Source: a virus
Lineage: Duplodnaviria; Caudoviricetes
Direction: 5' to 3' (one strand)
Virus record (IMG/VR): IMGVR_UViG_3300030106_004620
Span: 1-34,022 of that record
Length of the DNA stretch: 34,022 nucleotides
The translations under genes were made by a program, and so were the position numbers. Below, one piece after another: positions 1 to 34,022 of the stretch. How positions within the stretch are numbered: position 1 is the stretch's first letter; each line of letters opens with the position of its first letter. The notes below the pieces were generated by a model that was given only the letters and a program-made list of their open reading frames with translations, was not told where the DNA came from and searched no databases.

Positions 1-77
1 TCTTTAATTTTTGTATCAAAATCTAGGTTTTCAAAAGAATCTTCTGATAGTTCATCTGGGTCTACTGGGTCGAGTCT
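1..77. repeat. 77-bp exact repeat R1, copy 1 (equals 32155-32231)
   Basis: Direct base-by-base identity; the two copies diverge at 78 and 32232. Confidence 0.95.
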
Positions 78-3000
78 AAAACTTTTTTCATTTTCTTGAT
101 TAAATGCCCCACCCTTCGTAGCATAGTTTTCATTGGTATTGAGGATGTTTGTAATTCGTTTATCATCGTATCCTCTGGATTTAAGAATTTCTCTTGCCTC
201 GTCTTCATAACTTGTCTCCCTTAAAATGCTTTTTGATTTTCTTAGTTTACCAAATAATCTTTTTTCTGGAAACCATATAATTGCTTGTAAATCTGCTGGG
301 TATAATTTACTAAATTCTATGTTATTTTCCTTAACTTTTTGGTTCACTTTATCTGTTGCTATTTGCATTATTTTTCTAAATGAAATTATTTGACCCCCAT
401 TTCTTGGACTGTCTATTAACTGAACAACTTTTTTTACCAAATTGTTTACAGATAAATTTAATTCTGTTTTGTTTTTGTATCCATTATTTGCATATGGTCT
501 TAATATTTCAGAGGCCTTTGAAATAGCATAGTTATCATCTGTTTTTAATAAATCTTCATCGATATTATATTCTTTAATGATTTTTTTTCTATTATACTTA
601 AATTGTAAAGGGTATTTTTTTTCATCTAATTTTATACCAGTTTTTTTATGACCTAATTTTACAATTTGTCCTTTTGTTTTTAATAATGTATTTCTAAATC
701 TATCTATTTGAGGCTTTAAATCTTCAATGTTGTTTGTTAATTCCCCAGTTATTCTTCCCATAGTTCTCATAAACCATCTATCCATAGTTACATATTCGTA
801 AGCACCTTGCAGATTTGGATAAAAGGCACCACCTATTTTAGGACCAAATATTGCAGAACCCGGTAATTCTTGGTCTACCTTTTCTTTGCTTGGCTTATGA
901 CCAGTTATGTAGTTTATTTCTCCAGCCTTAAATCGAGTATTTAAAAATTGGTTTGCATCATCTAGTCCAAACTCTATTACCAGATTATTATATTTTACAA
1001 ATCCCTCTCTCATTGAAGGACTAACAGAACCGGCACTATCAAACTCCTCCTCTGTTTCTGGGAATCGGTTGTTTTTTTTGTAAAAGTCATATACTTGTAA
1101 TGCATATTTTAAATTAGAACTTGGTGCTTGACCGTTGCTTGTTATGGCTAATCCTACAACAAAAGTTGTTCGAGCATTTTTATCAGACAATATTTCTGGA
1201 TATATGTCTCCTAAAAGTTTTATAGCATTTTCTATATTAGTTGAATACCAAGCACCAGCATTTTTAGGATTATTAACAATTTCGTTTAAGGCTTCTCTTG
1301 TTACAACATCAGATATAATTTCTATCTGTTCATCGGTATATTCGCCAGTTTCAGTTTTTAAGTCTATGTTGTTTTCTTTTTGTAATTGTTGATTTCGTTC
1401 TACTAAATATTTTCCTATTTCTTTATTGTCAGCAAATTTCTCTACATCTATAGCATCAATTAAATCAACATTAGATAATGTTTTAACTACATCAGAAAAA
1501 TCATCAACTGCTGGTGCTAAAGCATATGACATCCTAGGATCACTTGTAGGCTCTGGATTGAATTGAGATTTAATTTGTTCTGGATAAAAAGCTACATAAA
1601 TTGTGCTTTCATCTACAGCACTGTTGTCAAATAATAACCTTTCTGTTTCCTCAGCCTTTATACCATCATAACCAAGAGATTTTATATATTTAATTAAATT
1701 TTGATTCTGTTGAAAAAGTCTAAACAATGTTTGCTTATTATCTCCACCTAAAAATTCTTTTAATGCTGATTGAGGATCGCCATAAGCATTTGGAAAATTA
1801 GGATCAGCAGTGCTTATATCACCTAAAATATTATCGCCAAAAATGTTTTTATTTCTTATATTTTTTTTACCAGTTGACTTTTTTATTAATTCTACAAATT
1901 CAATACCAGAAATTTCGTCACCAAAATCTGCATTAAGAATTAAAGGATTTTTAATGTTTAAATAAGCTGGAACAACTTGAGCATTACCACCATCCCAATT
2001 TTCTCTATTTTTAGCATACAAACTAGCCACTGATGGCGAGTCAGAAAAGAAAAATTGTGGACCTATATCGGAGCTAAAACCAAATTGTTTAAAGTCTCTA
2101 TTAGTTCCGTGATATGTTTTTAACAACTCACCATTCTCATCTCTTACTTTAGAATCTTTAAAGAACTCTTCTTGTTGTGGTGTAAGCCTAAATGACTCTT
2201 CTGGAGTTTCTTTTGGAAATATAGTGTATATATCTTCTTCAGCATCTGTTAATTCTACTCTACCAGCTTTTTTCATAGCCTCCATAATTTCAGCATTTGG
2301 TGATTGAACATTAACTGGAAATGGAGATGTTTTTAACTCGTTTTTAAAATACTCTGTTGCTATTCCTTTTCTTTGAAAATCTGGATGAACAGCAAAGCCA
2401 TCGATTGGGTATGGAGATGATCCACTGCTGTGATATGCAATTACTGGTTTACCCTTGTAATTAAGTATTTCTGCAGTTTCACCATATCCAGTTGATGCTT
2501 CAGAAAAACCAGCCTTTTTTAATTCTGATTTTGTCATATCTCCACCATCCTCTAAGTTTTCAACTATAGTTGGTGTAAGTCTAAATGACTCTTCTGGTGA
2601 TTTCGTATCCTCAGCCGTTTCCACTGTCTCAACATCTTCTACTGGATCAGTAATTATAGGGTCGCCTCCTTTAAAAAGAAAAGCAGTGTTTACTCCATCG
2701 CTTTGCATTCCTAAGATTTCATCAAATTCTTTAACAATATTATCTGGTAATGCAACTATATCCTTTAGACCAACTTCATCATTAGCATACCCTAAATAAT
2801 TAAAAGTATACCATTTAGAAAACAACTCAATACCTCTTGGGCCACCAATATTATTATTGTCTAAAAGAGTCCCCATACCTCCTATCCAGTTATCTATTTT
2901 TGATTTAAGTTCTGGATTTTCTGTTTCAAGTTTTTTATAGAGGATTTCGACAACTTCCTCAACGTATACGTCTTGATTTGCTCCTTTAGTGAGTACGATT

Positions 3001-4451
3001 CTCCCTCCGGAACTATTATATATGTTGCTTCCGAGCGTTTTGACTTTGTATAATTTTTTTCCTTCTTCATATCCATCTTCTCCTTCTTTAATTCTTGAAA
3101 TTTCAAATTTTCTAGGATCGTAATATCTATCTAATAAATCTTGATCAGACATAATTGATGTTGGTACATCAACATAGAAATCAAAGTCAACGTCTTCAAA
3201 GTTAGGGTTATCTGTAATTAACTCATTAAATATCATCATATTTAAAGGTATCTCAACTCCAGTTTCTATTTCTTTTTTTCTATTTTTATCAGCTACATCA
3301 TAAGGGTTAATTTTTTTAATAAAATCTTTATCTTCTGTTAATTTTTTAACATATTCATAATCTTCTTTTTTGTTAAAATTTTCTTCTTTTATATTAATCT
3401 TAACATTGCCTTTATCGTCAACTTCTAAAAAATTAGGTAGAAGTAAATTTTCTCCTTCTGTTATTTTTTTTAAAATTGGTTTATTTTTTTTATTATTTAT
3501 CCTTGTAAAAGTACCACTAGCACTACCACCTAAAACTGACCCAATAGAGGCACTTGTTACTGTTCTTTCCCACCACTCATCATCTGTAATATCTCTATAA
3601 GTTCCTTCTGCTGTCAAAGAAGTTATTTCATCAATACCCTCTTGCAAACTTTCAGCTAATCCACCTTTTAACATTTCTAATGGCACATCTTTATGTAGTC
3701 CTTTTTTAAAAATTTTATTAAAGAAAACATCTCTAGCAAGTTTTGGATTTTTATTGTAACTATTAAATAAACTAGATGGTCCATAGTTTGTAGCAAAACT
3801 TACTAAACTCACCAATGATGAAAGCCTTCCAGCTTCTTGTGGATTTACATCGTATTCTCTAGCAGTTTGATATGTGTCTGAATACATTAAAGAGCTTCCA
3901 TAAAATGCACCACTTGCTGGACCCATAAAATATGAAGTTCCTACTTGAGTTAAAAATGTAGGAATAGTTTGAGCTAGTTGATCAACCCATTTTCCTTCTA
4001 TTTCAATATCATCTAATTTGTAATATTTATCATAAAACTTTTTTTGATCATTTATCCAGCTAGAAATTTTGTCCTCAGATACAATTTTTTCTTGTTCTTT
4101 TTCAGACCTTTGAGTATATAAACCATTAGGCCCAAGCTCCGTATTTATAAATCCTTCTTTTTTAAGTATAGGATTAATAATTGCTGGAGTTAAAAATGGC
4201 GTAATTGTTTTTTTATAGTTTTCTAAAAAATCATATGCTTTTTTATATTCTTGATGATTGGGATCGTCTGTGTTTAAATCATAATCTCCCATCTTGTACC
4301 CATAAGGACTTGTAGTAAAAGTCTCGTAGTATGATTGAGGTATCTCAAAAGCTAAATTTTTAGGCAATTCTAGTAAGCCTTTACCGAATGCTTTTAATGT
4401 GCTTTTATCTGGAAGTTCATCCCAAAATGATTTTTCTTTTTTTTCTGACAT
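1..4451 (-). CDS. Giant polyvalent internal virion (ejection) protein, N-terminal part plus cassette A. It runs off the window start and continues in frame at 32154..29988 (about 2205 aa in total).
   Basis: Missing from the ORF track because it has no stop inside the window. ATG at 4451 overlaps the previous stop (TAATG). Manual translation is open from MSEKKEKSFWDELP to ...SFRLDPVDPDELSEDSFENLDFDTKIKE, identical to the sequence inside ORF 29988..33950. It follows the tail and internal virion genes. Confidence 0.9.
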   Translation of the reverse strand, partial: MSEKKEKSFWDELPDKSTLKAFGKGLLELPKNLAFEIPQSYYETFTTSPYGYKMGDYDLNTDDPNHQEYKKAYDFLENYKKTITPFLTPAIINPILKKEGFINTELGPNGLYTQRSEKEQEKIVSEDKISSWINDQKKFYDKYYKLDDIEIEGKWVDQLAQTIPTFLTQVGTSYFMGPASGAFYGSSLMYSDTYQTAREYDVNPQEAGRLSSLVSLVSFATNYGPSSLFNSYNKNPKLARDVFFNKIFKKGLHKDVPLEMLKGGLAESLQEGIDEITSLTAEGTYRDITDDEWWERTVTSASIGSVLGGSASGTFTRINNKKNKPILKKITEGENLLLPNFLEVDDKGNVKINIKEENFNKKEDYEYVKKLTEDKDFIKKINPYDVADKNRKKEIETGVEIPLNMMIFNELITDNPNFEDVDFDFYVDVPTSIMSDQDLLDRYYDPRKFEISRIKEGEDGYEEGKKLYKVKTLGSNIYNSSGGRIVLTKGANQDVYVEEVVEILYKKLETENPELKSKIDNWIGGMGTLLDNNNIGGPRGIELFSKWYTFNYLGYANDEVGLKDIVALPDNIVKEFDEILGMQSDGVNTAFLFKGGDPIITDPVEDVETVETAEDTKSPEESFRLTPTIVENLEDGGDMTKSELKKAGFSEASTGYGETAEILNYKGKPVIAYHSSGSSPYPIDGFAVHPDFQRKGIATEYFKNELKTSPFPVNVQSPNAEIMEAMKKAGRVELTDAEEDIYTIFPKETPEESFRLTPQQEEFFKDSKVRDENGELLKTYHGTNRDFKQFGFSSDIGPQFFFSDSPSVASLYAKNRENWDGGNAQVVPAYLNIKNPLILNADFGDEISGIEFVELIKKSTGKKNIRNKNIFGDNILGDISTADPNFPNAYGDPQSALKEFLGGDNKQTLFRLFQQNQNLIKYIKSLGYDGIKAEETERLLFDNSAVDESTIYVAFYPEQIKSQFNPEPTSDPRMSYALAPAVDDFSDVVKTLSNVDLIDAIDVEKFADNKEIGKYLVERNQQLQKENNIDLKTETGEYTDEQIEIISDVVTREALNEIVNNPKNAGAWYSTNIENAIKLLGDIYPEILSDKNARTTFVVGLAITSNGQAPSSNLKYALQVYDFYKKNNRFPETEEEFDSAGSVSPSMREGFVKYNNLVIEFGLDDANQFLNTRFKAGEINYITGHKPSKEKVDQELPGSAIFGPKIGGAFYPNLQGAYEYVTMDRWFMRTMGRITGELTNNIEDLKPQIDRFRNTLLKTKGQIVKLGHKKTGIKLDEKKYPLQFKYNRKKIIKEYNIDEDLLKTDDNYAISKASEILRPYANNGYKNKTELNLSVNNLVKKVVQLIDSPRNGGQIISFRKIMQIATDKVNQKVKENNIEFSKLYPADLQAIIWFPEKRLFGKLRKSKSILRETSYEDEAREILKSRGYDDKRITNILNTNENYATKGGAFNQENEKSFRLDPVDPDELSEDSFENLDFDTKIK
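78..1525 (-). other. Variable cassette A of the giant protein: putative HhH-GPD/DNA-glycosylase-like domain
   Basis: Motifs WYSTNI, LAITSNGQAPSSNLKYA, GPKIGGAFYPNLQG-x4-VTMDRWFMR and ADLQAIIW. Confidence 0.55.
1526..1604. repeat. 79-bp exact repeat R2, copy 1 (equals 33944-34022)
   Basis: Direct identity with the last 79 bases of the window. Confidence 0.95.
1533..2177 (-). other. ADP-ribosyltransferase-like domain (ART of polyvalent proteins) within the giant protein
   Basis: Motifs LLKTYHGT, FFFSDSPSVASLYA, VVPAYLNIKNPL, LGYDGI and YVAFYPEQIKS. Confidence 0.8.
2178..2597. repeat. 27-bp direct repeats (2178-2204 and 2571-2597, 26/27 identical) encoding PEESFRLTP
   Basis: tggtgtaag[c/t]ctaaatgactcttctgg occurs twice, 393 bp (131 codons) apart. 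Confidence 0.92.
2205..2570 (-). other. GNAT acetyltransferase-like domain within the giant protein
   Basis: IDGFAVHPDFQRKGIATEYF matches GNAT motif A (V-x-P-x-x-Q/R-x-x-G-x-A/G). Confidence 0.75.
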
Positions 4452-5554
4452 TATTTTACTGACTCTTGCTGTGATTTAACATAACCAAACCAGCTGTCTT
4501 TTAAACTTTTTAATGCTTTTAAAAAGAATCCTTCTTCTTTATCTTCAACCACACTAGTTTTTTTAATTGAATCTATTTGCTTAACTAGCATAGGGTCTAA
4601 ATTCAGAAGTTCCATTGTTGCTCTGTCTATCTTCTTTTCATCATTATTTTTTACTGCTCTTTCTAACATACTCATATATATTTTTATTTCATCTTGTCTC
4701 TTATTATATTGAGTTGCAGTTTCTGATTTTGTTTTAGAAAATAAACCATTAACAACACTGTAATCTAGTTTCATATTTGGTTCTTTAGGTTTGTACATTT
4801 TTTTCAATTCTTCTATTTTAGCTTTACTTAAATAAACACTACCACTTTCTAAATCTTTAAAAAGTATATTTGATTTCATATAGTCTGGAAGATTTGCAAC
4901 ATCAATCCTATAAGGTCTCTCTACTGTTTCTTTTGTGTAATCAGTTTCTTTTTCTTCTTCTTTTCCTTTTTTCTCTAAAATTCCCTTAATTGGATCGTAC
5001 TCTATATCACTCATTTTATCTGCATATTTTGATTTTAATTGATTCATACTTGTTGTACTTAAATAAATACTATCTCCGGGTGTGTTTGAAATCATAGGGT
5101 CTTTTAAATATATAGGATTTAGCATTGTTTTATCAATAAGATTATGCCTTGTGATTGAAGGCTTTGATAAATCTGTAACTGGTTTATCTTCTTCTTTTAA
5201 TTTTTTTAATGCAGAAGGCAGATAGCTTTCAGCTAAGTCTTTATCAGTTTTTTTAAGATTTACGTTTTGTCTTACAGAATCCAACATTGCTTCTCTTGTT
5301 AGTTCATCAGCATTTTGATAAGAAGGAGTTTGTGTTAGTATGTTTGCATATATTCTAAAATCTTTACTAGCTTGAGGTTCGTTTTTAATTAATTTTTGAA
5401 TATTTTGAACGTGCTTTATTCCATCTTGTGGACTTAGTGAAAGTTGTTTTTGGTTTAGTTTATTTGCATTAACATAAGCCTTGACTTCTCTTGGTAGCTG
5501 AGGATCGTCAAAATCTACCCCTAAAATTGATTCTATTGTAGATTTGTATTCCAT
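4451..5554 (-). CDS. Putative internal virion/ejection protein
   Basis: 367-aa ORF, translationally coupled on both sides, between the tail genes and the giant protein. Confidence 0.55.
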   Translation of the reverse strand: MEYKSTIESILGVDFDDPQLPREVKAYVNANKLNQKQLSLSPQDGIKHVQNIQKLIKNEPQASKDFRIYANILTQTPSYQNADELTREAMLDSVRQNVNLKKTDKDLAESYLPSALKKLKEEDKPVTDLSKPSITRHNLIDKTMLNPIYLKDPMISNTPGDSIYLSTTSMNQLKSKYADKMSDIEYDPIKGILEKKGKEEEKETDYTKETVERPYRIDVANLPDYMKSNILFKDLESGSVYLSKAKIEELKKMYKPKEPNMKLDYSVVNGLFSKTKSETATQYNKRQDEIKIYMSMLERAVKNNDEKKIDRATMELLNLDPMLVKQIDSIKKTSVVEDKEEGFFLKALKSLKDSWFGYVKSQQESVK

Positions 5555-19622: not shown

Positions 19623-19656
19623 GTTTCAAGTTCAAATTAACAAATTGGAGATTCAA

Positions 19657-20238: not shown

Positions 20239-21098
20239 TGAAATATATAGTATTTGAAAACACAGAAAATTACGAAGACAGCATAGTTTTGATAGCAGAT
20301 AAAAATATAAAAACTATAGAAAATCCAGATAATAATATTAAAGCTGGATATGGTAATTACAAAATTCACGAACCAAGTGGTGGATTAGTATTTGACAATC
20401 TTAGATTATTACGACATTTTTTTGAAGGTGCAAGAGATGTGTTTGGAGAAGGTGATAGTTGTTATGGTTCACCAACAGATGATGAGAAAATGAAACGTAA
20501 AACTATGACTTGTTTTATTTATGAATTTTTAACTGCAAGTCATATAAAAAGAGAGATGGAATTAGAAGGTGGTTTAAATGTTGGTTTGTATTATATTGAA
20601 GATGACCAAGATAGCGAAACTTATAATTCTTACCTAGATTATATAAATTTTATAGAAAGAGAATTACATTTAAAAAAATCAAATAAACCAGAGGAAGGTA
20701 AGGTATATGCTCTTACTGGTGGTGTTGGTGATAAGTGTATTGCTAATGGTGATAGTTGGAAAGATAGTGTAGTTCAGAATGATGAGCCTAAAACCTTTAA
20801 AATTATCAGATTCTTTAAAGATGATGATAGACCTAACATAGTGCTTCTAACTGGACTTACTTTTGAACAAGCACAGAACCATTGTCAAGACCCAGATACA
20901 TCTGGTGATGGATGGTTTGATGGCTATGAAAGTGATGTAGTTCAAAATGATGAGCCTCAAGATTTCGAGGGTCATTGTCCAAAATGTGATAGTGATAATT
21001 TAGATAATGTTAGTGGTGGTGTTGAATATACTGATATGGCTTGTGATGATTGTGGTCATAAATTTGGTATTGAATGTAAAGGTTGGGTCATATCATAA
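20238..21098 (+). CDS. Multi-module hypothetical protein with C-terminal Zn ribbon
   Basis: 286 aa, CPKC...CDDC near the C-terminus, internal VVQNDEP repeat. Confidence 0.8.
   Translation: MKYIVFENTENYEDSIVLIADKNIKTIENPDNNIKAGYGNYKIHEPSGGLVFDNLRLLRHFFEGARDVFGEGDSCYGSPTDDEKMKRKTMTCFIYEFLTASHIKREMELEGGLNVGLYYIEDDQDSETYNSYLDYINFIERELHLKKSNKPEEGKVYALTGGVGDKCIANGDSWKDSVVQNDEPKTFKIIRFFKDDDRPNIVLLTGLTFEQAQNHCQDPDTSGDGWFDGYESDVVQNDEPQDFEGHCPKCDSDNLDNVSGGVEYTDMACDDCGHKFGIECKGWVIS
20768..20957. repeat. 22-bp direct repeats (20768-20789 and 20936-20957, 21/22 identical)
   Basis: tgtagttca[g/a]aatgatgagcct, 168 bp (56 codons) apart. Confidence 0.9.
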
Positions 21099-21099
21099 A

Positions 21100-21152
21100 T
21101 CCACTGATGAGGGAGGTCTCTTTGAGGTCTCCCAGAAACCGAGAGGTCTGGA
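21100..21152 (+). ncRNA. Hammerhead ribozyme, type I (HH2); predicted cleavage after C21148
   Basis: Stem I UCCA/UGGA, CUGAUGA (21104-21110), stem II GGGAGGUCUC/GAGGUCUCCC, A-GAAA, CC-GAGA-GG, GUC; compensatory changes relative to HH1. Confidence 0.85.
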
Positions 21153-21176
21153 AATATTAATTAAAGGAGATTCAAA

Positions 21177-21539
21177 ATGTTAACAAGTAAGCAAATAGAT
21201 GTGATCCCAGATACTAATACTGGAATAGTAAGAGAGGTTGTAGAGGCTATGTTTCATAACAATTATGGTGAATATGAGGCATTAAAAACTGCGAGGTATA
21301 ATTACTATAGGGCAGAGAAAAATGACTTTAAATCTGACCTATTTATAATCTTTAAATACAAAGGTAAGATTGTAGAGGTTGAAGGTCAGTGGTATGGTAG
21401 AGAAAATGATGAGTGTTGGTTTGATACTTACAACTGGAGTGTTAAAGTAAAAAACAAATCAACAGATTGGGATTATAAATATATATCATTAGATAGTTTA
21501 TATTCATTTAATATTAATTCAATTAGGGAGATAAAATAA
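21177..21539 (+). CDS. Hypothetical early protein
   Basis: 120 aa, AAGGAGATTCAAAATG start context. Confidence 0.8.
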   Translation: MLTSKQIDVIPDTNTGIVREVVEAMFHNNYGEYEALKTARYNYYRAEKNDFKSDLFIIFKYKGKIVEVEGQWYGRENDECWFDTYNWSVKVKNKSTDWDYKYISLDSLYSFNINSIREIK

Positions 21540-21706
21540 TGAAATATATGATGACTATTTCAATGAGTGTTGCATTAGTTCTATGGAGTATCATAATGTT
21601 TAATCATATGTATAGAGGGTTAAACTGGATACCTTTATTCCCAATCTGGTTGTTTATGATTGTGTGTCTATGGGTTACCTATAGAACCGATAGTAGTAAA
21701 TGGTAA
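21539..21706 (+). CDS. Small two-helix membrane protein (55 aa)
   Basis: MKYMMTISMSVALVLWSIIMFNHMYRGLNWIPLFPIWLFMIVCLWVTYRTDSSKW; GGAG RBS and TAATG coupling. Confidence 0.75.
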   Translation: MKYMMTISMSVALVLWSIIMFNHMYRGLNWIPLFPIWLFMIVCLWVTYRTDSSKW

Positions 21707-24042: not shown

Positions 24043-24217
24043 CTATTCTATTCAACTCCTCTTTAAGTTTTTCATAATGCATAGGATTTATGTACTCAAA
24101 ACTCCTAGCAAATTCAAATAAAGCCTTTAATTTTATTTCTAATTTATTATTCTTTGCTTTTTCCTCTGATAGGAGTGTTGTTAAATCATTATTTGCTTTA
24201 ATCAATTCGTCATACAT
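23993..24217 (-). CDS. Hypothetical coiled-coil protein
   Basis: 74 aa, TAATG-coupled to the upstream gene. Confidence 0.7.
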   Translation of the reverse strand: MYDELIKANNDLTTLLSEEKAKNNKLEIKLKALFEFARSFEYINPMHYEKLKEELNRIDGQSNEDKSIREEGEG

Positions 24218-24558
24218 TAAAAAGGTATACCTTCGTCTTGATTAGATGAACTACTAGCTCTACTATCTAAAACATCTACTAGTTTTTTGCCTTGCTGATT
24301 GTTAAACTGCCTATATTCTCCAGATGGATCATAAATTTCACTGGCCATATCATTTAACTGGTCTCTCTTATCTTTTGGAAACCAAATAATATCCATATAG
24401 GTATCATCTTTCTTTTTAACAGATGGACTAGCAACAAACAAACCATTAGTTCCTTCTACTAGTTTGCAGTTTTTAATCTCAAATCCATCTTGAGTTTTAA
24501 TAGTTAGGATTGCTTTTACTTTGTTCCAATCTACATTCCTCATTCCTATTATTTGCAT
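24217..24558 (-). CDS. SpoVG-family nucleic-acid-binding protein with SSB-like acidic tail
   Basis: IKNCKLVEGTNGLFVASPS...YMDIIWF matches SpoVG; ends in QDEGIPF. Confidence 0.8.
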   Translation of the reverse strand: MQIIGMRNVDWNKVKAILTIKTQDGFEIKNCKLVEGTNGLFVASPSVKKKDDTYMDIIWFPKDKRDQLNDMASEIYDPSGEYRQFNNQQGKKLVDVLDSRASSSSNQDEGIPF

Positions 24559-26153: not shown

Positions 26154-26304
26154 ATAGTTTTCTCCAATCCTTAATTGCTTTTGCTCTCTTCTTGTTATAC
26201 TTTTGTGTGTTTAATTTTGCACACTTTTTGCAAATATAACCCTTACGAGGGATAAGTTTTACCTCATCTTTTGTAAGGGTCACTTTGCACTGCCTACAAT
26301 TCAT
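26146..26304 (-). CDS. Small Zn-finger protein (52 aa)
   Basis: MNCRQCKV...YICKKCAKL...; GGAG RBS and ATGA overlap. Confidence 0.7.
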   Translation of the reverse strand: MNCRQCKVTLTKDEVKLIPRKGYICKKCAKLNTQKYNKKRAKAIKDWRKLYG

Positions 26305-27059
26305 TTAGACTCCGACAAATCTAATTGAAATGTAGATTGTAATTTTGGCTTTCTTTTAGGTTTTTGATCCTTATCATAATCCTCATAAAACATATTAAAT
26401 TGATACACTAAATGCCCTACTGCCTCTGGATTATAATCAACCTCGTGTAGTAAATTTGTTCTAGGTGAAGGTCTTTCACCAGAGAATGTTTTACTGCAAC
26501 GAATAACACCTAATCTGTCAATCTTTTCGCCACCCATTTCTTCCCATAGCATTTTGTACATAGAAAGCTGGTACATATAATTAGGGTCTTTATAATTAAT
26601 AGATGTTTTAGCATCAAGCATCCAAACGTCACCATCAATACGAGCAACCATATCACATCTTCCAGCAAAACCAAACACAAGTTTGCCTTTAGATATTCTT
26701 GGCGAGTATAACATCTTTTCAATACTAATAATCTCTGGGTTATGTTTTTCTCTCCAACACACATAGCTAATCATTCCTTTAGTAGCCTCCCTTGACTTAT
26801 TTTCAAAGTCTACTAACTGACCATCCTCATAGTCTTCTATGCCTTGATGAACATCAGTACCATCTATTAATGCTTGGGTTTTTTTATTATAGTAGGTATC
26901 AACAGAACCTTCTGATTGCTTAATAATATATAGTAATGTTGAATGGGCCATAGGGTTTCCATATCTACAGAGAGTAGTTGCAGAGGGAACTATCACACCC
27001 TCTGCAATCTCGTAGAACCTACCATAATGAGTTCTTGGATAGATTCTTGGGAAACTCAA
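26301..27059 (-). CDS. PD-(D/E)XK (RecB/Cas4-like) exonuclease
   Basis: PSATT, GTDVHQGIE, FAGRCD, MLDAKTS and YQLSMY; adjacent to the annealase. Confidence 0.85.
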   Translation of the reverse strand: MSFPRIYPRTHYGRFYEIAEGVIVPSATTLCRYGNPMAHSTLLYIIKQSEGSVDTYYNKKTQALIDGTDVHQGIEDYEDGQLVDFENKSREATKGMISYVCWREKHNPEIISIEKMLYSPRISKGKLVFGFAGRCDMVARIDGDVWMLDAKTSINYKDPNYMYQLSMYKMLWEEMGGEKIDRLGVIRCSKTFSGERPSPRTNLLHEVDYNPEAVGHLVYQFNMFYEDYDKDQKPKRKPKLQSTFQLDLSESK

Positions 27060-27793
27060 GACTTAAATGCCTTTTCTTGTTCTTTTATAATATGCTTTTC
27101 TAGTGCAATTAAAGTATTTAAGTGTAATTGCTGATCATTATTAAGATTGGTTTTTGGTTTCCAAAACTTAATATCTTTACGAACATCTTCTAGATTATTT
27201 CCAAAACCTTCTGCATAAGTTGTGCCCTTTCTAAATCCTACAACTATTTTATCAGAACCTCTAAGCCTTTGAGGTGCATCTGGTTCTGGTGTAAAGGTAG
27301 AGGGTGGTTTTATTGTAGGAGTGCTTTTAGGAATTGGAGATTCGTTAGAAGAGTCTCCCACACCACCCTCATTAATTTCATCTAGCATATCCATCTTATA
27401 AACCTCAGCACCCATACCAAAACAAACTGCTATACATTTAGTAAGGCATCTCATCTTTGCTGTGTTGATGCTGAAACAATCGCCAACTGGTTTATTAGAA
27501 TGATTAGTTACTGGTAACCACATATGCATTTTAACATCGCCTATCCAGATATTACATTCTACACTACAGCTACCATCTCTGTAATACTGGACATCTAACA
27601 TAGTTCCATCAGCTTGTTCATATTGAACAAATTCCCATCTTGCCTCTGGATAATGTTTTAAAAGTTCTCCTAAAGCATAAGTCCATTCAATGTATTCACC
27701 AAATGCACCCTTCTTTGTTTTGATCTTATCTTTAGGAATTTTGACATTAGTTAATGTCTTTCTTATTGATTCTATAGTATGTTTTTTACTCAC
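27056..27793 (-). CDS. Sak-like single-strand annealing recombinase (DUF1071-type)
   Basis: YIEWTYA...HYPEA, MWLPVTNHSNKP and INTAKMRCLTKCIA-x2-GMG. Confidence 0.8.
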   Translation of the reverse strand: MSKKHTIESIRKTLTNVKIPKDKIKTKKGAFGEYIEWTYALGELLKHYPEARWEFVQYEQADGTMLDVQYYRDGSCSVECNIWIGDVKMHMWLPVTNHSNKPVGDCFSINTAKMRCLTKCIAVCFGMGAEVYKMDMLDEINEGGVGDSSNESPIPKSTPTIKPPSTFTPEPDAPQRLRGSDKIVVGFRKGTTYAEGFGNNLEDVRKDIKFWKPKTNLNNDQQLHLNTLIALEKHIIKEQEKAFKS

Positions 27794-29535: not shown

Positions 29536-29991
29536 TTAATCCTTGTTTGCTTTTAAAAAGTGTTCAGTTGTCCCTTTTCCTTTTTCTGTGTTATAGTATT
29601 GTTTCCAGTATTCTGCTCTAAATTTTTTACTTCTAGGTATAGGCTCTGGAACTCTTCTGTAGTGAAGTCTACATAGACATACAGCAACAGCAATGTTTGT
29701 TTTTAAACTAAATTCTAAGTCCAGAGGGTCAACACCAAAATAAATTAAAGCCTCAACTAATGACGGCCTATATTCTACATAGTTATTAAATATATCTCTA
29801 GCTGTATCTGGCTCTATTTGAAAAAAACTTAAAGCTGGACCACCACCTTTTTGTACCAAAGCTCTATATCCAGACTCAGCCATACCAGTTTCATATATTA
29901 AGTTAACAGCCTCTTCCGTAACTGGTATTTTTGTTAATTTTTCTAATTTTTCTAAAACCTCAATAATTATATTTTTTATATCTTTTTTCAT
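29536..29991 (-). CDS. Putative endolysin (lysozyme/transglycosylase-like fold)
   Basis: ES motif followed by GPALSFFQIEP-x-T, and AEYWKQYYNT-x2-GKGT; upstream of membrane genes. Confidence 0.7.
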   Translation of the reverse strand: MKKDIKNIIIEVLEKLEKLTKIPVTEEAVNLIYETGMAESGYRALVQKGGGPALSFFQIEPDTARDIFNNYVEYRPSLVEALIYFGVDPLDLEFSLKTNIAVAVCLCRLHYRRVPEPIPRSKKFRAEYWKQYYNTEKGKGTTEHFLKANKD

Positions 29992-32900
29992 TTTGTGTAT
30001 AATTGTTTTAATCTTTTAGTATAAAGACTAGGTGTTATAAGATTGTTATCTAGTGCATCTATTAATACATTTTCATACATATCAATACTAGCATTTGATA
30101 AAGTTTCTTTTTTTAAGTCTTCTTTTAATTGTTTTAATTGTAAAGATGTTGTTTTTTCTATGTTTGATTCGCTACGCTCAAAAGGATAGTAAGGCCTATC
30201 TTTAAATGCATCAACACTAGGCGTTATCCAAAAACCAACCTTACCTACAACTGGTATTCTTTGCATTAAATCAAAGTAAGTTTCTTTTATTTCTTCGCCT
30301 CTCATATCTTCAAATTCTTCGTCTGTCATACTTTCTTTAGTTTTTTCTAAAGATATGTTCTTCCTAAGCCTTTCAATATCTGTAAGTAATTCTTCTCCAA
30401 CTGAAAAAGATGGAGGCCCTACAAATTTATTTATTATACCACGAAACCCATATCTTTCTACTTGATATATATGATACCTACTAGCACCTATAAATTGTAA
30501 AAGATTATCAAATGCATAATCGCTTATATTTTTTATAGGTCTTAATAAAATTAAATCTTTTAAAGCATCTTTTGGAACACCAGCTACAAGAAACATCATT
30601 AAAAATCTTGTAAAGTTTGCAAAACCTAGTGCTTTTTCTTTGTATGTTTTTGCATTTTTTATATCATTTACAATTTTTCTACGAATCACATCTAACTGTC
30701 TTATTGTAAAAGTTTTCAATTGATAAAGTAGCCTTCCTTTGTTAGCATTTAAATATCCTTGAGGCATTTCTGATTGTGTTACTGGTTGATGGTCTAATAA
30801 TTTATTAAAAACTAAAATTTGCACATCTTCAGTTACAATTCCATCTGCAAAATCTTGTATAAGTTGATTAATTTTTTCTTGATCTTTTGTGTCAAAATAA
30901 CTTTCTATATCTTTTTTGAATTGCTTAGAAATTTTTCCAGATTTAGCCTCTTTAGAATATCTATTGTAAATAGAATTAATTAAAGTTTCTTTACCCAGCC
31001 TATCTATTTTACTTAAGCCAACTATTTTAAATATACTATCAACAGCTTTTCCAGTTCCTCTGTTGGATGTAAATTCTTGCCCAATTTTCTCAATTCCTAT
31101 ATCTTCTATTTTTATTTTTTTAGTAGTAACTAAAGTTCCTAAAGTTTCAAAAAAACCAGCTTGGTCTAAACTGTAGGCTAAGTCTCCTATTTGTGTTATA
31201 GCAGAAATAAAACTCCCCATTGTAAGAATATATGTACTATTCTTAATATCTGAAATAATTGGACTTGTTGCTTGTGGATTTAATCTTGAATTTAAAACTT
31301 CTTTAAGAGTTTGCTCTTGCTTTACTGTGAGAGGAGTTCTTTCATTAACTTCTACAATAAATTTAGCTATAGCATTTTCATTAATTTCTCCTTGACCAAT
31401 AAACTTTCTTTTTTCTATAACATCAGTCATATTTTCTATGTAGTTCATTAAAGCTTCAGAAGAAGGTCTATAAAACTTATTAATTTCACTGTCTATAATT
31501 TTGACTGTTCTAGGTTTAGCAGATTTAGGATCGCCAGAATTAAGAGTTTTGTAGCCTCTCATTATCATACTCATTATATGCTCTTTTTCTTCTATTGTTA
31601 AAGGCTCTCCATTTTTCTTTTCAATAGCTTCTTTTTGTAGTCTGTTATAAAGAGTTTGCAAGTTAGGGTCTATGTTAAAAATTGTCTGCCTTAATCCATC
31701 TAAATCATCTAAACTTCTAGGAATATAATTTTCTATAAATCCAATATCTCCACCAGTGTCAATATAGTCTTGACGAATTTGATCAAGCATTATTCTTAAT
31801 GTATTATACTCTTTTTCTAATCCATACTTGTTTATTAATTCATCTATTTTAGGTTGATGTGAGTTTTTAAAAGCTAAATCCAGATAATAAAAATCTTCCT
31901 CTGTCATATTTTTTGCTTTGTCAAAAAAATTGAAAACAACTTCTCTGCGAAATTTAGTTTTTTGCAGTAAGTCGTATTCAAAATCTCTAAGTTTTCTTTT
32001 TAATATAGGATCAATGCCTTCTAAAACTGAAGATATTGGCTTTAAAATTATTTCTAGCTGTCTTAAAGCATCTCTTTCTTTTGTTAGAGTGCTTATTATC
32101 TTGTTTTTAATTTTATCTTTAAAAGGCTCTTCGCTTGGAGGGGTTTCAAATATTTCTTTAATTTTTGTATCAAAATCTAGGTTTTCAAAAGAATCTTCTG
32201 ATAGTTCATCTGGGTCTACTGGGTCGAGTCTGTAACTTTCGTTGTTTTTGCTGATTTCTTTTTCGATGAGGGATTCAATTTTCCTTGAACTATTTTCCAG
32301 CCTCGTTTGTATACCTCGTCCGTATCTTTGAACCAGCCTTTCAATGTAATCTTGCCCATTATTTTTTTCCTCCCAATTATTATTACTTTCAAGCATATCG
32401 CCTAATGCCATTTTTATATCTATGTTGCCATCAAAATCTTGTAGCGATTCTTTGTGTAAATTTATAAAATCTTCTGTTTCTTTCAAAATGTAATCTGCTT
32501 TTTCTTTTACCCTTGTTATTTTTGAAGGTGCTTTAAAGTTAGTTATTACACTTAAAGCTGGTATTTTTTTACCTTCAACCATAACGTAGTCAGAAGATGC
32601 TCCAGAAATAACATCCGGTGCTACTTCTCTTAATTTTTTATAAAACTCATCTTGTTTTTTTAAATTTTTAAAATTACCATCTACATCATAAAAATATAGT
32701 ATAGTATTTTTACCAGTAGGATTATTCTTACTGCCTACAATAGAAGTTTGTTGTGCAAGATAACCCAAAATATCTATAAACGATTTAATACCATCTTTAG
32801 ATGCTATAGTAGTAATAGTTGTGGTTGGTTCAGCAGAATAGTCTTTCCAAAAACCTTGTTTATGAAAGTCAACATTAGACTTCACTCCAGTTATTTTAGA

Positions 32901-34022
32901 TGCTATTTTTATAATAGATTCATTAATTTTTTTTGTTATTTTTAATTGATCATCAAAAGTCATATCATATATTTGTGGAAACTTTTTAGAATACGGAGTT
33001 CCTTCTCCAAAAACTAATGCAGATGTAATTTTTTGTGTATTGCTAAGTATTGCATCTCCCATTGTTCCTCCAGCATCTACACCATAGTCACCTAAGAAAT
33101 TTATGACATTTACCCAGTCTACTGCTTGAACTTGTTGAGTTGTCCACTTTTGACCCATCCAATTAATATCATTTAATTTTTTTGTTAGTTTGTTACCAAA
33201 AGCAGAAGTGTTTTCATATTGAGTTTCTGTTGGATTTCCTCCAAAATCAACAGATAAAGATTTTAGTTTGTTTTTACCAAAGGCTCTTACTAGTGCATTA
33301 TAAAATGCTGAGTCTATAAAACCTCTCCCTCTTGATGTATGAATATCAGCAGTATATGGAGAACCACCTTTAGGATCATTTCCCATAAGATATCTTGTGT
33401 TATTCCCTATTGCAGAATCTATAAAATCAAATAATTTTTGACCAATTCCACCTTTAATTTTTCCATCTTCTGTAAACAACTGTCTAACTGCTTCATCGTT
33501 TAAACCAGCTTTTTTATTTCCTTTTAAATTGCTTGTTTCTTCTTCGTAAGCTAATAATAAATTGTTAATTGCACCTTCTGGTGACTCATTTACTTGAGTT
33601 ACCAATGAACCTAAAACAAATTTTATTGCACTTTCTGGAGACCCGTCAGTCAAAGGCTGAATATCTTCTATGTAATTGTCATACCAGACTCTTGCTTCCA
33701 TTATTTGTTCTAAAGTCATATTATTTTCTACATCTTTTATCCACTGATTAATAGTTTTATTTCCAACTGTCATTCTATAGTTGTCATTAACTAAAGTTTT
33801 AGATTTGTTTTTTGGTTCTCCAATTTTAGGGTCTCTATTAATTTTTTTCCGAAGATTTGATTCGGTATCTTTGTCTGGCAGAACAGAATATATATTGTCT
33901 CTTACTTCATCACCTTTGTATTCTGGATTTGGTTCTATTCTAAATGACATCCTAGGATCACTTGTAGGCTCTGGATTGAATTGAGATTTAATTTGTTCTG
34001 GATAAAAAGCTACATAAATTGT
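29988..34022 (-). CDS. Giant polyvalent virion protein, cassette B plus constant C-terminal region. It is 5'-partial and joins the N-terminal part at 4451..1605 (about 2293 aa in total).
   Basis: The frame stays open upstream of ATG 33950 to the window end (TIYVAFYPEQIKSQFNPEPTSDPR-MSF), identical to the end of the ART domain at 1604-1526. Confidence 0.9.
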   Translation of the reverse strand, partial: TIYVAFYPEQIKSQFNPEPTSDPRMSFRIEPNPEYKGDEVRDNIYSVLPDKDTESNLRKKINRDPKIGEPKNKSKTLVNDNYRMTVGNKTINQWIKDVENNMTLEQIMEARVWYDNYIEDIQPLTDGSPESAIKFVLGSLVTQVNESPEGAINNLLLAYEEETSNLKGNKKAGLNDEAVRQLFTEDGKIKGGIGQKLFDFIDSAIGNNTRYLMGNDPKGGSPYTADIHTSRGRGFIDSAFYNALVRAFGKNKLKSLSVDFGGNPTETQYENTSAFGNKLTKKLNDINWMGQKWTTQQVQAVDWVNVINFLGDYGVDAGGTMGDAILSNTQKITSALVFGEGTPYSKKFPQIYDMTFDDQLKITKKINESIIKIASKITGVKSNVDFHKQGFWKDYSAEPTTTITTIASKDGIKSFIDILGYLAQQTSIVGSKNNPTGKNTILYFYDVDGNFKNLKKQDEFYKKLREVAPDVISGASSDYVMVEGKKIPALSVITNFKAPSKITRVKEKADYILKETEDFINLHKESLQDFDGNIDIKMALGDMLESNNNWEEKNNGQDYIERLVQRYGRGIQTRLENSSRKIESLIEKEISKNNESYRLDPVDPDELSEDSFENLDFDTKIKEIFETPPSEEPFKDKIKNKIISTLTKERDALRQLEIILKPISSVLEGIDPILKRKLRDFEYDLLQKTKFRREVVFNFFDKAKNMTEEDFYYLDLAFKNSHQPKIDELINKYGLEKEYNTLRIMLDQIRQDYIDTGGDIGFIENYIPRSLDDLDGLRQTIFNIDPNLQTLYNRLQKEAIEKKNGEPLTIEEKEHIMSMIMRGYKTLNSGDPKSAKPRTVKIIDSEINKFYRPSSEALMNYIENMTDVIEKRKFIGQGEINENAIAKFIVEVNERTPLTVKQEQTLKEVLNSRLNPQATSPIISDIKNSTYILTMGSFISAITQIGDLAYSLDQAGFFETLGTLVTTKKIKIEDIGIEKIGQEFTSNRGTGKAVDSIFKIVGLSKIDRLGKETLINSIYNRYSKEAKSGKISKQFKKDIESYFDTKDQEKINQLIQDFADGIVTEDVQILVFNKLLDHQPVTQSEMPQGYLNANKGRLLYQLKTFTIRQLDVIRRKIVNDIKNAKTYKEKALGFANFTRFLMMFLVAGVPKDALKDLILLRPIKNISDYAFDNLLQFIGASRYHIYQVERYGFRGIINKFVGPPSFSVGEELLTDIERLRKNISLEKTKESMTDEEFEDMRGEEIKETYFDLMQRIPVVGKVGFWITPSVDAFKDRPYYPFERSESNIEKTTSLQLKQLKEDLKKETLSNASIDMYENVLIDALDNNLITPSLYTKRLKQLYTK
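32155..32231. repeat. R1 copy 2 (equals 1-77)
   Basis: Exact identity. Confidence 0.95.
32232..33943 (-). other. Variable cassette B: glycosylase-like domain plus additional alpha/beta domain(s)
   Basis: VWYD, GIGQKLFDF, TADIHTSR and QQVQAVDW parallel the cassette A motifs. Confidence 0.5.
33944..34022. repeat. R2 copy 2 (equals 1526-1604)
   Basis: Exact identity. Confidence 0.95.

Follow-up and report, generated by a model that had tools for sequence, protein, structure and literature searches.

Phage polyvalent proteins are multi-domain proteins predicted to be delivered into the cell together with the phage DNA, and PMC5512222 reports an HExxH zincin-like peptidase in about 36% of them, proposes that such embedded peptidases process them and mentions cassette-like variation once, at a kinase locus. 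Here we describe a giant gene of this class on a 34,022-nucleotide contig (IMG/VR record IMGVR_UViG_3300030106_004620, positions 1 to 34,022; Duplodnaviria, Caudoviricetes; hereafter the window, meaning that whole stretch), in which one slot for a protein module is filled by either of two cassettes, A and B. Comparing this gene with the described proteins reveals clear likeness: it is giant, it belongs to a phage with terminase and portal, it carries ART-PolyVal and GNAT-like domains, and LPD38 occurs in its relatives. Unlike the proteins of PMC5512222, as far as its main text describes them, it has a fixed linker at each module, alleles swapped within a species, a last slot that always holds a module of predicted helix-hairpin-helix (HhH) fold, and no HExxH that we could find. 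The words "glycosylase", "linker" and "shuffling" occur 0 times in the main text of that paper, whose supplements could list such domains under LPD names.

Other systems resemble parts of this locus. The flexible gene modules and metagenomic islands of PMC7468147 share with it near-identical cores and coexisting, diverged variants that shuffle independently, also inside a large open reading frame (ORF). The ORF example there concerns tail fibre and lipase domains, and the variable genes of that one phage population are mostly receptor-binding, methylase and secreted genes; in contrast, the variants here are enzyme domains within one protein, bordered by a repeated peptide and shared at 82–100% across species. 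The giant LPD38-bearing podovirus protein gp47 of phi24B has been detected in virions and is a proposed ejection protein, according to 10.64898/2026.04.10.717836. LPD38 occurs in four relatives of our gene, whereas gp47 has a metallopeptidase and the window's own C-terminus gives no LPD38 match; the likeness is one of domain content. Finally, the Dag glycosylases of host defence attack modified bases in conflict with phages, according to 10.1101/2025.10.29.685425. The modules described here differ from Dag in being phage-encoded, within a likely virion protein, and in having no sequence match to solved structures. Neither polyvalent proteins nor phage alleles that coexist are new in themselves; what is new here is a slot that always holds a module of predicted glycosylase fold. 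Our literature search, which left subscription papers mostly uncovered, turned up no publication on DUF7178, the Pfam family of a third allele, on module swapping at such linkers, or on polyvalent proteins that contain a glycosylase domain.

Results

The giant gene begins at 4451 on the minus strand and ends at 29988, running across the contig ends, and the window represents one phage contig, which makes up the whole of its assembly. The original prediction had described the contig as R1-A-R2-(genome)-R1-B-R2, and this layout, with all its coordinates, sizes, and circle and protein lengths, was reproduced to the base. R1 (77 nt; 1–77 = 32155–32231) and R2 (79 nt; 1526–1604 = 33944–34022) are exact repeats, and no further exact direct or inverted repeat of at least 20 nt was found within the whole window. 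Cassette A (1448 bp) and cassette B (1712 bp) differ by 264 bp; the reading frame is open through either, giving predicted circles of 32154 bp with A and 32418 bp with B and giant proteins of 2205 aa (A) and 2293 aa (B). Identity between the two paths stops after base 1 of the Tyr/Phe codon in SYALAP/SFRIEP and restarts at the Arg codon of SFRLDP/SYRLDP, so that both switch points lie inside a linker motif, as had been proposed, and the domain next to the slot is indeed an ART domain. The terminal overlaps are unequal in length (77 nt for R1, 79 nt for R2). The features of the gene, from its N-terminal end, are as follows.

2589–4451, minus strand: N-terminal region (621 aa), in all relatives (alignment of relatives)
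2571–2588, minus strand: linker 1, SFRLTP (motif scan)
2196–2588, minus strand: optional GNAT-like module (131 aa including linker; Pfam Acetyltransf_1, E 0.0045, under the curated cut-off)
2178–2195, minus strand: linker 2, SFRLTP (motif scan; 32-nt repeat with linker 1, 91% identity)
1530–2195, minus strand: ART-PolyVal module (222 aa; Pfam PF18760, E 9.8e-21, 75 bits against a cut-off of 31)
1512–1529, minus strand: linker 3 of path A, SYALAP (motif scan)
78–1525, minus strand: cassette A (482 aa), whose model has the HhH glycosylase fold; Lys and Asp both invariant (alignment, predicted model)
66–83, minus strand: linker 4 of path A, SFRLDP (motif scan)
33930–33947, minus strand: linker 3 of path B, SFRIEP (motif scan)
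32232–33943, minus strand: cassette B (570 aa), modelled as an HhH-like N-terminal domain (about residues 63–295) followed by an alpha/beta ferredoxin-like C-terminal part (predicted model)
32220–32237, minus strand: linker 4 of path B, SYRLDP (motif scan)
29988–32231, minus strand: C-terminal region (749 aa from the linker), common to paths A and B (alignment)
1–77, no strand: R1, first 77 nt of the C-terminal region, recurring at the contig start; assembly cut point (exact repeat, contig depths)
1526–1604, no strand: R2, tail of the ART module, recurring at the contig end; assembly cut point (exact repeat, contig depths)
33944–34022, no strand: second copy of R2 (exact repeat)

Contigs of four sequencing runs (X1–X4, X1 being the likely source run) were aligned to positions 1–5000 of the window; depths are per-contig means, and contigs drop rare variants. 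Runs X2 and X3 contain identical records and were therefore treated as one dataset. In X1, a 10538-nt flank contig of depth 26.4 stops at 77, cassette A is a single contig (48–1555) of depth 14.6, and a contig of depth 15 links 85 to 1526 and so bridges the A/B slot; we read this last contig as the cassette B path because the B path of a relative, L035, also aligns to 85–1. On the other side of the slot lie the ART contig (1526–2204, 679 nt, depth 29.1) and the N-terminal side (depth 28.2). Cassette A and the bridging contig together reach 29.6, matching the flanks (26–29), which agrees with the expectation that the coverage of A plus B should roughly equal that of the backbone. Because full-depth contigs lie on both sides (10538 and 679 nt), R1 and R2 are cut points rather than discrete repeats, and the idea that the overlaps are assembly artefacts of a graph bubble is upheld. 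Junction support, also anticipated, comes from the other data: contigs of X2/X3 run through either junction of A and show 0 differences (records 1–618 and 806–2204), and both B junctions fall within a single 5652-nt alignment, at 99%, to L035, which is from a separate assembly. The mixed contig in X2/X3 has a depth of 9.22, where 9.26 is expected if A is 5 and the backbone 11.2, and the depth of A against the backbone is 5.0 of about 11 in X3 and 3.2 of 4–5.7 in X4. Three full-length B proteins of 2162 aa lie on contigs of 31864, 31816 and 31740 bp, each about as long as a unit genome carrying one cassette. No exact A junction was found in IMG/VR, and a search of IMG/VR with the C-terminal region alone gave no match.

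We are highly confident that the contig traces a path through a bubble in the assembly graph formed by two real, coexisting alleles of one slot. What weighs against this is that depth is a per-contig figure, that X1 is perhaps the source sample itself, that the depth of B rests on the joining contig and not on direct measurement, that X2 and X3, sharing identical records, amount to one observation, and that the slots are unphased by any long read. Contigs of this kind overstate genome length and can create combinations of modules that do not exist in nature.

The latter point bears on the GNAT-like module, which forms a second half-depth slot in X1 (depth 14.0). An X3 contig skips exactly its 393 nt in frame (joint 2187->2581), and the module is missing in X3, in L035 and in all same-species proteins found (including P0001, P0003 and P0005), and unseen in the other 20 compared rows. 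With the module at half depth and cleanly missing elsewhere, the 2293-aa form is unconfirmed: both frames are open, as stated for the predicted proteins of about 2205 and 2293 aa, but the GNAT+/B form of 2293 aa was not seen elsewhere, whereas GNAT-/B (2162 aa) occurs three times at full length. The simplest coexisting pair in X1 would be GNAT+/A (2205 aa) and GNAT-/B (2162 aa). The original prediction had envisaged one module exchanged between two coexisting near-identical phages; the coexisting alleles stand, but there are up to three differing places, a third contig break in X1 lying at 21047–21694.

Within the species the giant protein is thus variable at several positions, while its N-terminus is 97–100% and its C-terminus 99% identical (some of these records may be the same data assembled twice). 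The ART module of P0002–P0004, here ART2, is 32% identical to that of the window (ART1). The combinations are GNAT-/ART1/B in P0001, P0323, P0325 and L035, GNAT-/ART2/B in P0002–P0004 and GNAT-/ART1/C in P0005; the last provides, in the same species, the further allele that the original prediction had led one to look for.

The comparison was extended to 22 rows cut at the linkers, of which L049 ends before the slot and two of the other 21 are shortened by a contig end. The excluded records are duplicates or near-duplicates (L042, L045, L055, L056, L037, P0002, P0004, P0008, P0011), those that stop short of the slot (L034, L036, L038, L052), distant ones (L053, L054) and L051, which yielded no ORF. 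Since ART is missing from five rows and four have a different, LPD38-bearing C-terminus, the slot was defined as the position of whichever module comes immediately ahead of the C-terminus. Each of the 21 rows extending that far carries exactly one allele (A in 5, B in 6, C, which is DUF7178, in 10), and two slot modules were found in 0 of the 21. These alleles are 82–93% identical between phages whose N-termini share 37–62%: module against N-terminus, the values are 90% and 43% for allele A (P0006), 91% and 53% (L029) and 82% and 44% (L047) for B, and 93% and 62% (P0007), 92% and 39% (L046) and 83% and 55% (L040) for C. For ART2 they are 100% and 42% (P0003/L049). Diverged copies of A and C (31–68%) are also present. 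On an IQ-TREE phylogeny of 19 N-termini the allele labels need 8 changes, against a mean of 9.0 for shuffled labels, of which 45 of 200 sets needed no more; in none of the bootstrap trees does an allele form a single clade. In all 10 loci checked the giant gene comes after capsid, tail and adaptor genes, and the surrounding gene order is conserved. From these comparisons it is very probable that modules have been exchanged between phages at the linkers; the exchange is not simply a swap between the two coexisting phages, as first proposed, the alleles being common to many species.

The other parts of the gene are likewise replaceable. At a linker, the C-terminus gives way to an unrelated LPD38-bearing one in L041:14294-16693, L043:13619-16090, L048:14384-16801 and L050:12431-14929 (LPD38 found by profile scan in L041, L043 and L050, L048 being counted through its 90% identity to L043). 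The L043 and L048 versions are 90% identical, with N-termini at 67%; no LPD38 match was obtained for the window's C-terminus. The N-terminal region matched no Pfam, PHROG or NCBIfam family.

Several further modules were seen in relatives. A first-slot module of 127–136 aa (L029:9038-9421, L040:11939-12346, L041:11876-12256) has weak KptA/PARP-like matches (E 0.002–0.07) and is possibly a second kind of ART. Three more linker-bounded modules of 174, 123 and 174 aa, of no known family, lie at L039:2656-3177 and 3178-3546, L042:12128-12649, L048:11864-12385 and L050:10379-10900, and in one of them L039 and L050 are 96–99% identical, with N-termini at 39%. In L049:6014-7183 two ART modules stand in tandem, the second 100% identical to the ART of P0002–P0004 and, judged by that identity, a very recent transfer.

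Every module begins with a hexapeptide of the S[FY]RLxP type. Scanned over all six frames of the window, the pattern matches six times, always within the giant gene; 2000 residue shuffles gave a mean of 0.005 and a maximum of 1, although the pattern was drawn post hoc from these same matches. Across 47 linkers in 15 ORFs, seven codons occur at the first position (both Ser families and Thr), three for Arg and six for Leu. Such synonymous changes, together with the TCN/AGY variation of Ser, indicate that a peptide is conserved rather than one DNA site. The linkers nonetheless share an 18-nt core and supply 17–32 nt of near identity, to which the conserved ART tail adds about 70 nt. In 11 of 11 pairs, which were picked for sharing a module, the identity change-point lies between -71 and +62 nt of a linker within a 600-nt span, five of them within 9 nt. 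Homologous recombination between short stretches of shared sequence at the linkers is the likely route of exchange. It must be set against this that the linkers coincide with domain borders; breakpoints would fall there under selection for intact domains too, and the change-point data cannot separate microhomology from such selection. The linker is no general feature of the B family: a looser pattern followed 6 of 49 distant B modules, against a background of 6%. Of 104 long distant proteins, 10 nevertheless contain a 6-mer repeated three times, compared with 0 of 104 shuffles, and aromatic linkers resembling these occur in some of them.

What the slot modules are is suggested by predicted structure. 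Neither A nor B matched a Pfam, NCBIfam or PHROG family, and a PDB sequence search with both gave nothing under E 0.4. The A model (pLDDT, the model's own confidence score, 84; alignment of 43 rows) finds its best structural match in the 8-oxoguanine glycosylase (OGG) Tm1821 (Z 11.7, root-mean-square deviation (rmsd) 3.8, 200 of 209 residues aligned). Its top 25 rows comprise 22 of DNA glycosylases, two of a queuine salvage enzyme and one of the phage PaMx11 DNA transferase, with unrelated proteins from Z 5.8. The B model (pLDDT 91, 64 rows) is folded over the whole cassette; residues 63–295 match Tm1821 more weakly than A does (Z 8.4, rmsd 4.0, 176 aligned) and other glycosylases at Z 6–7, and the remainder matches ferredoxin-like folds. 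In BFVD 14 entries match the A model, each either unnamed or from an uncultured phage; several are labelled as polyvalent proteins. K230 and D249, 19 residues apart, are invariant in the 43 A-family rows, as are K170 and D200 in the 64 B-family rows; a Lys motif occurs in all 21 slot modules, and 19 of them also show the Asp motif pattern. This Lys and Asp, with their spacing in A, may correspond to the Lys/Asp pair of OGG1. Neither A nor B matches the DUF7178 Pfam family, whereas allele C scores above its cut-off (32–38 bits against 27). Of the 43 A-family members, 16 match DUF7178 at E<=0.01, and among Atlas neighbours at 0.95–0.97 it occurs in 15–26% of members. The B family is broad, with 441 relatives at E<=0.001 among 50%-identity clusters.

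With the HhH DNA glycosylases (Tm1821/OGG, EndoIII, MutY, AlkA) the modules would share the predicted fold and a Lys and Asp in HhH-like motifs, and we predict that A and B are deeply diverged members of this superfamily that keep both residues, B more weakly supported as such than A. Allele C may join the group by its motifs, its DUF7178 family and its Atlas neighbours only. For base excision from DNA as the activity of the slot module, we put the chances at about even. A good deal speaks against these assignments. A and B are scarcely related by sequence (BLAST E 0.094; hhalign probability 21%, E 0.001), and their cross-searches with hidden Markov models gave 0 of 51 and 0 of 150 at E<0.1; Foldseek against PDB found no match at E<=0.001 for either model. 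Helical proteins can attain Z-scores of this size by chance, and the Z of 8.4 for B is tied with efflux-pump rows, which match its other domain. The same fold covers a nucleoside hydrolase and a phage DNA transferase, the proposed correspondence of Lys and Asp to known catalytic residues is one of motifs, and C is known by sequence only.

The giant protein is a phage polyvalent protein: it holds several unlike domains (ART-PolyVal, a weak GNAT and the module of predicted HhH fold) in one polypeptide of 2162–2293 aa, and the TerL, portal, capsid and adaptor genes lie upstream on the same strand. By analogy, it quite probably enters the cell with the phage DNA; to be held against this is that its virion location is deduced from gene order and family. 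The N-terminal region contains, after a hydrophobic strand, an invariant EExxE (aa 498–502; window 2946–2960), whereas HExxH occurs in 0 of the 6 family members checked. We presume from its position that EExxE resembles the HExxH site of zincin peptidases, and it is possibly an altered metal site. An Atlas search with this region returned unnamed clusters only, plus weak LPD1/LPD23 leads.

Discussion

It is informative to consider these observations as parts of one explanation, which we regard as reasonably probable: real, coexisting slot alleles, linker-bounded exchange, and an HhH base-excising module in an ejected protein. The giant protein of this phage of about 32 kb would be packed and ejected into the cell with the DNA. 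There the ART module would modify host targets, as PMC5512222 postulates, and the slot module would remove particular, perhaps modified, bases from the DNA of the host or of rival phages early in infection. A, B and C would differ in base specificity, and variation among hosts or rival phages would keep several alleles circulating. The swaps would be carried out during co-infection by the phage's own Sak/exonuclease pair; Sak is a Rad52-like recombinase of a family linked to the formation of phage mosaics in PMC3945230. One can imagine a bolder version, in which the linker is both processing site and recombination handle of a plug-in polyprotein whose last slot is an obligatory glycosylase, its three ancient alleles, each directed at different modified bases in the DNA of hosts or rival phages, being under balancing selection. 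We think that version improbable; if true, it would describe a phage-side mirror of the host defence glycosylases, in an ejection polyprotein common to a whole phage genus.

Other origins for the two cassettes have to be weighed against coexisting alleles. Misassembly, in which one cassette from another phage was joined through a short shared stretch, could draw on foreign reads, relatives of both cassettes existing at 82–91% in other species. It is nevertheless extremely improbable, given junctions of both A and B that are bridged in other data, depths that sum to the backbone, and full-length B proteins from the same species; only the GNAT+/B combination is perhaps the assembler's choice. 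A single molecule bearing both cassettes, whether a dimer of the genome or two prophages in tandem with one allele per copy, would account for the depths near one half of A (14.6), the bridging contig (15) and GNAT (14.0) in X1, with similar values in X3 and X4, and short reads cannot tell a dimer from two equally common types; the repeated ratio near 1:1 is the sole support for this reading. The runs may be of the same water, however, making the repeated ratio perhaps one observation, and the want of any row with two slot modules (0 of 21), the unit contigs of 31.7–31.9 kb that carry B alone, and the lack of an integrase among the 24–26 ORFs scanned make this very improbable as well. We consider it highly unlikely that the linkers are recombinase sites of a programmed, shufflon-like switch: their codons vary synonymously across 47 linkers, the crossover tracts spread from -71 to +62 nt, and the window, in a scan that did not take in every small ORF, yielded neither a recombinase nor a silent cassette. 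The shared 18-nt core, the repeat of up to 32 nt at 91% around GNAT, and the loss of GNAT as a clean repeat-to-repeat deletion are what such a switch would leave.

The remaining alternatives concern function. The linker may be primarily a protease site at which the giant polyprotein is cut, its DNA microhomology a by-product, which is compatible with exchange. The peptide is kept at every module start despite synonymous and Ser TCN/AGY changes, and zincin processing of polyvalent proteins is proposed in PMC5512222; yet none of the six members checked has HExxH, no peptidase was recognised in the window, and descent from one duplicated linker also explains the likeness, which leaves the idea possible but doubtful. 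Similarly tentative is the suggestion that the slot module, with the same fold, modifies bases as a transferase or hydrolyses nucleotides, or that it binds DNA without catalysis and protects the genome on entry. The fold list of A does include the queuine salvage enzyme DUF2419 (Z 10.6) and the glycinyltransferase gp46 of PaMx11 (Z 6.7), and B and C carry an extra alpha/beta part; against this, the top match and most rows are glycosylases, and a purely binding role is made less likely by the invariant Lys and Asp, which stand 19 residues apart in A. With the predicted base-excising module and coexisting alleles as the preferred reading, the locus shows at base resolution how polyvalent proteins gain their mixed architectures, domains moving between species at a short repeated linker. 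It points to phage-delivered glycosylases, of which we found no published description, and offers a predicted fold and testable residues for DUF7178 and two unannotated sister families.

Other features of the window

The window encodes a terminase, a P22/SU10-like portal, capsid, adaptor, Sak, an exonuclease and NinG. No relative of the phage was found in GTDB genomes, and cultured phages gave distant matches only (capsid below 38%, cassette A 24–31%, cassette B none). The candidate recombination machinery is the following.

26301–27793, minus strand: genes for Sak, a single-strand annealing protein (Pfam SSAP_Sak, E 1.1e-21), and an exonuclease (PHROG exonuclease, E 2e-27)

A SpoVG-like gene (24217–24558; Pfam E 1.3e-12) lies in the replication and recombination module. 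Between about 20400 and 22700 is a third variable region, of small plus-strand genes that include an HTH repressor-like ORF; X1 contigs break in it at 21047 and 21694, and gene content and order differ in L035. A similar 14-nt element precedes several genes, at 19646, 19955, 21165 and 21776.

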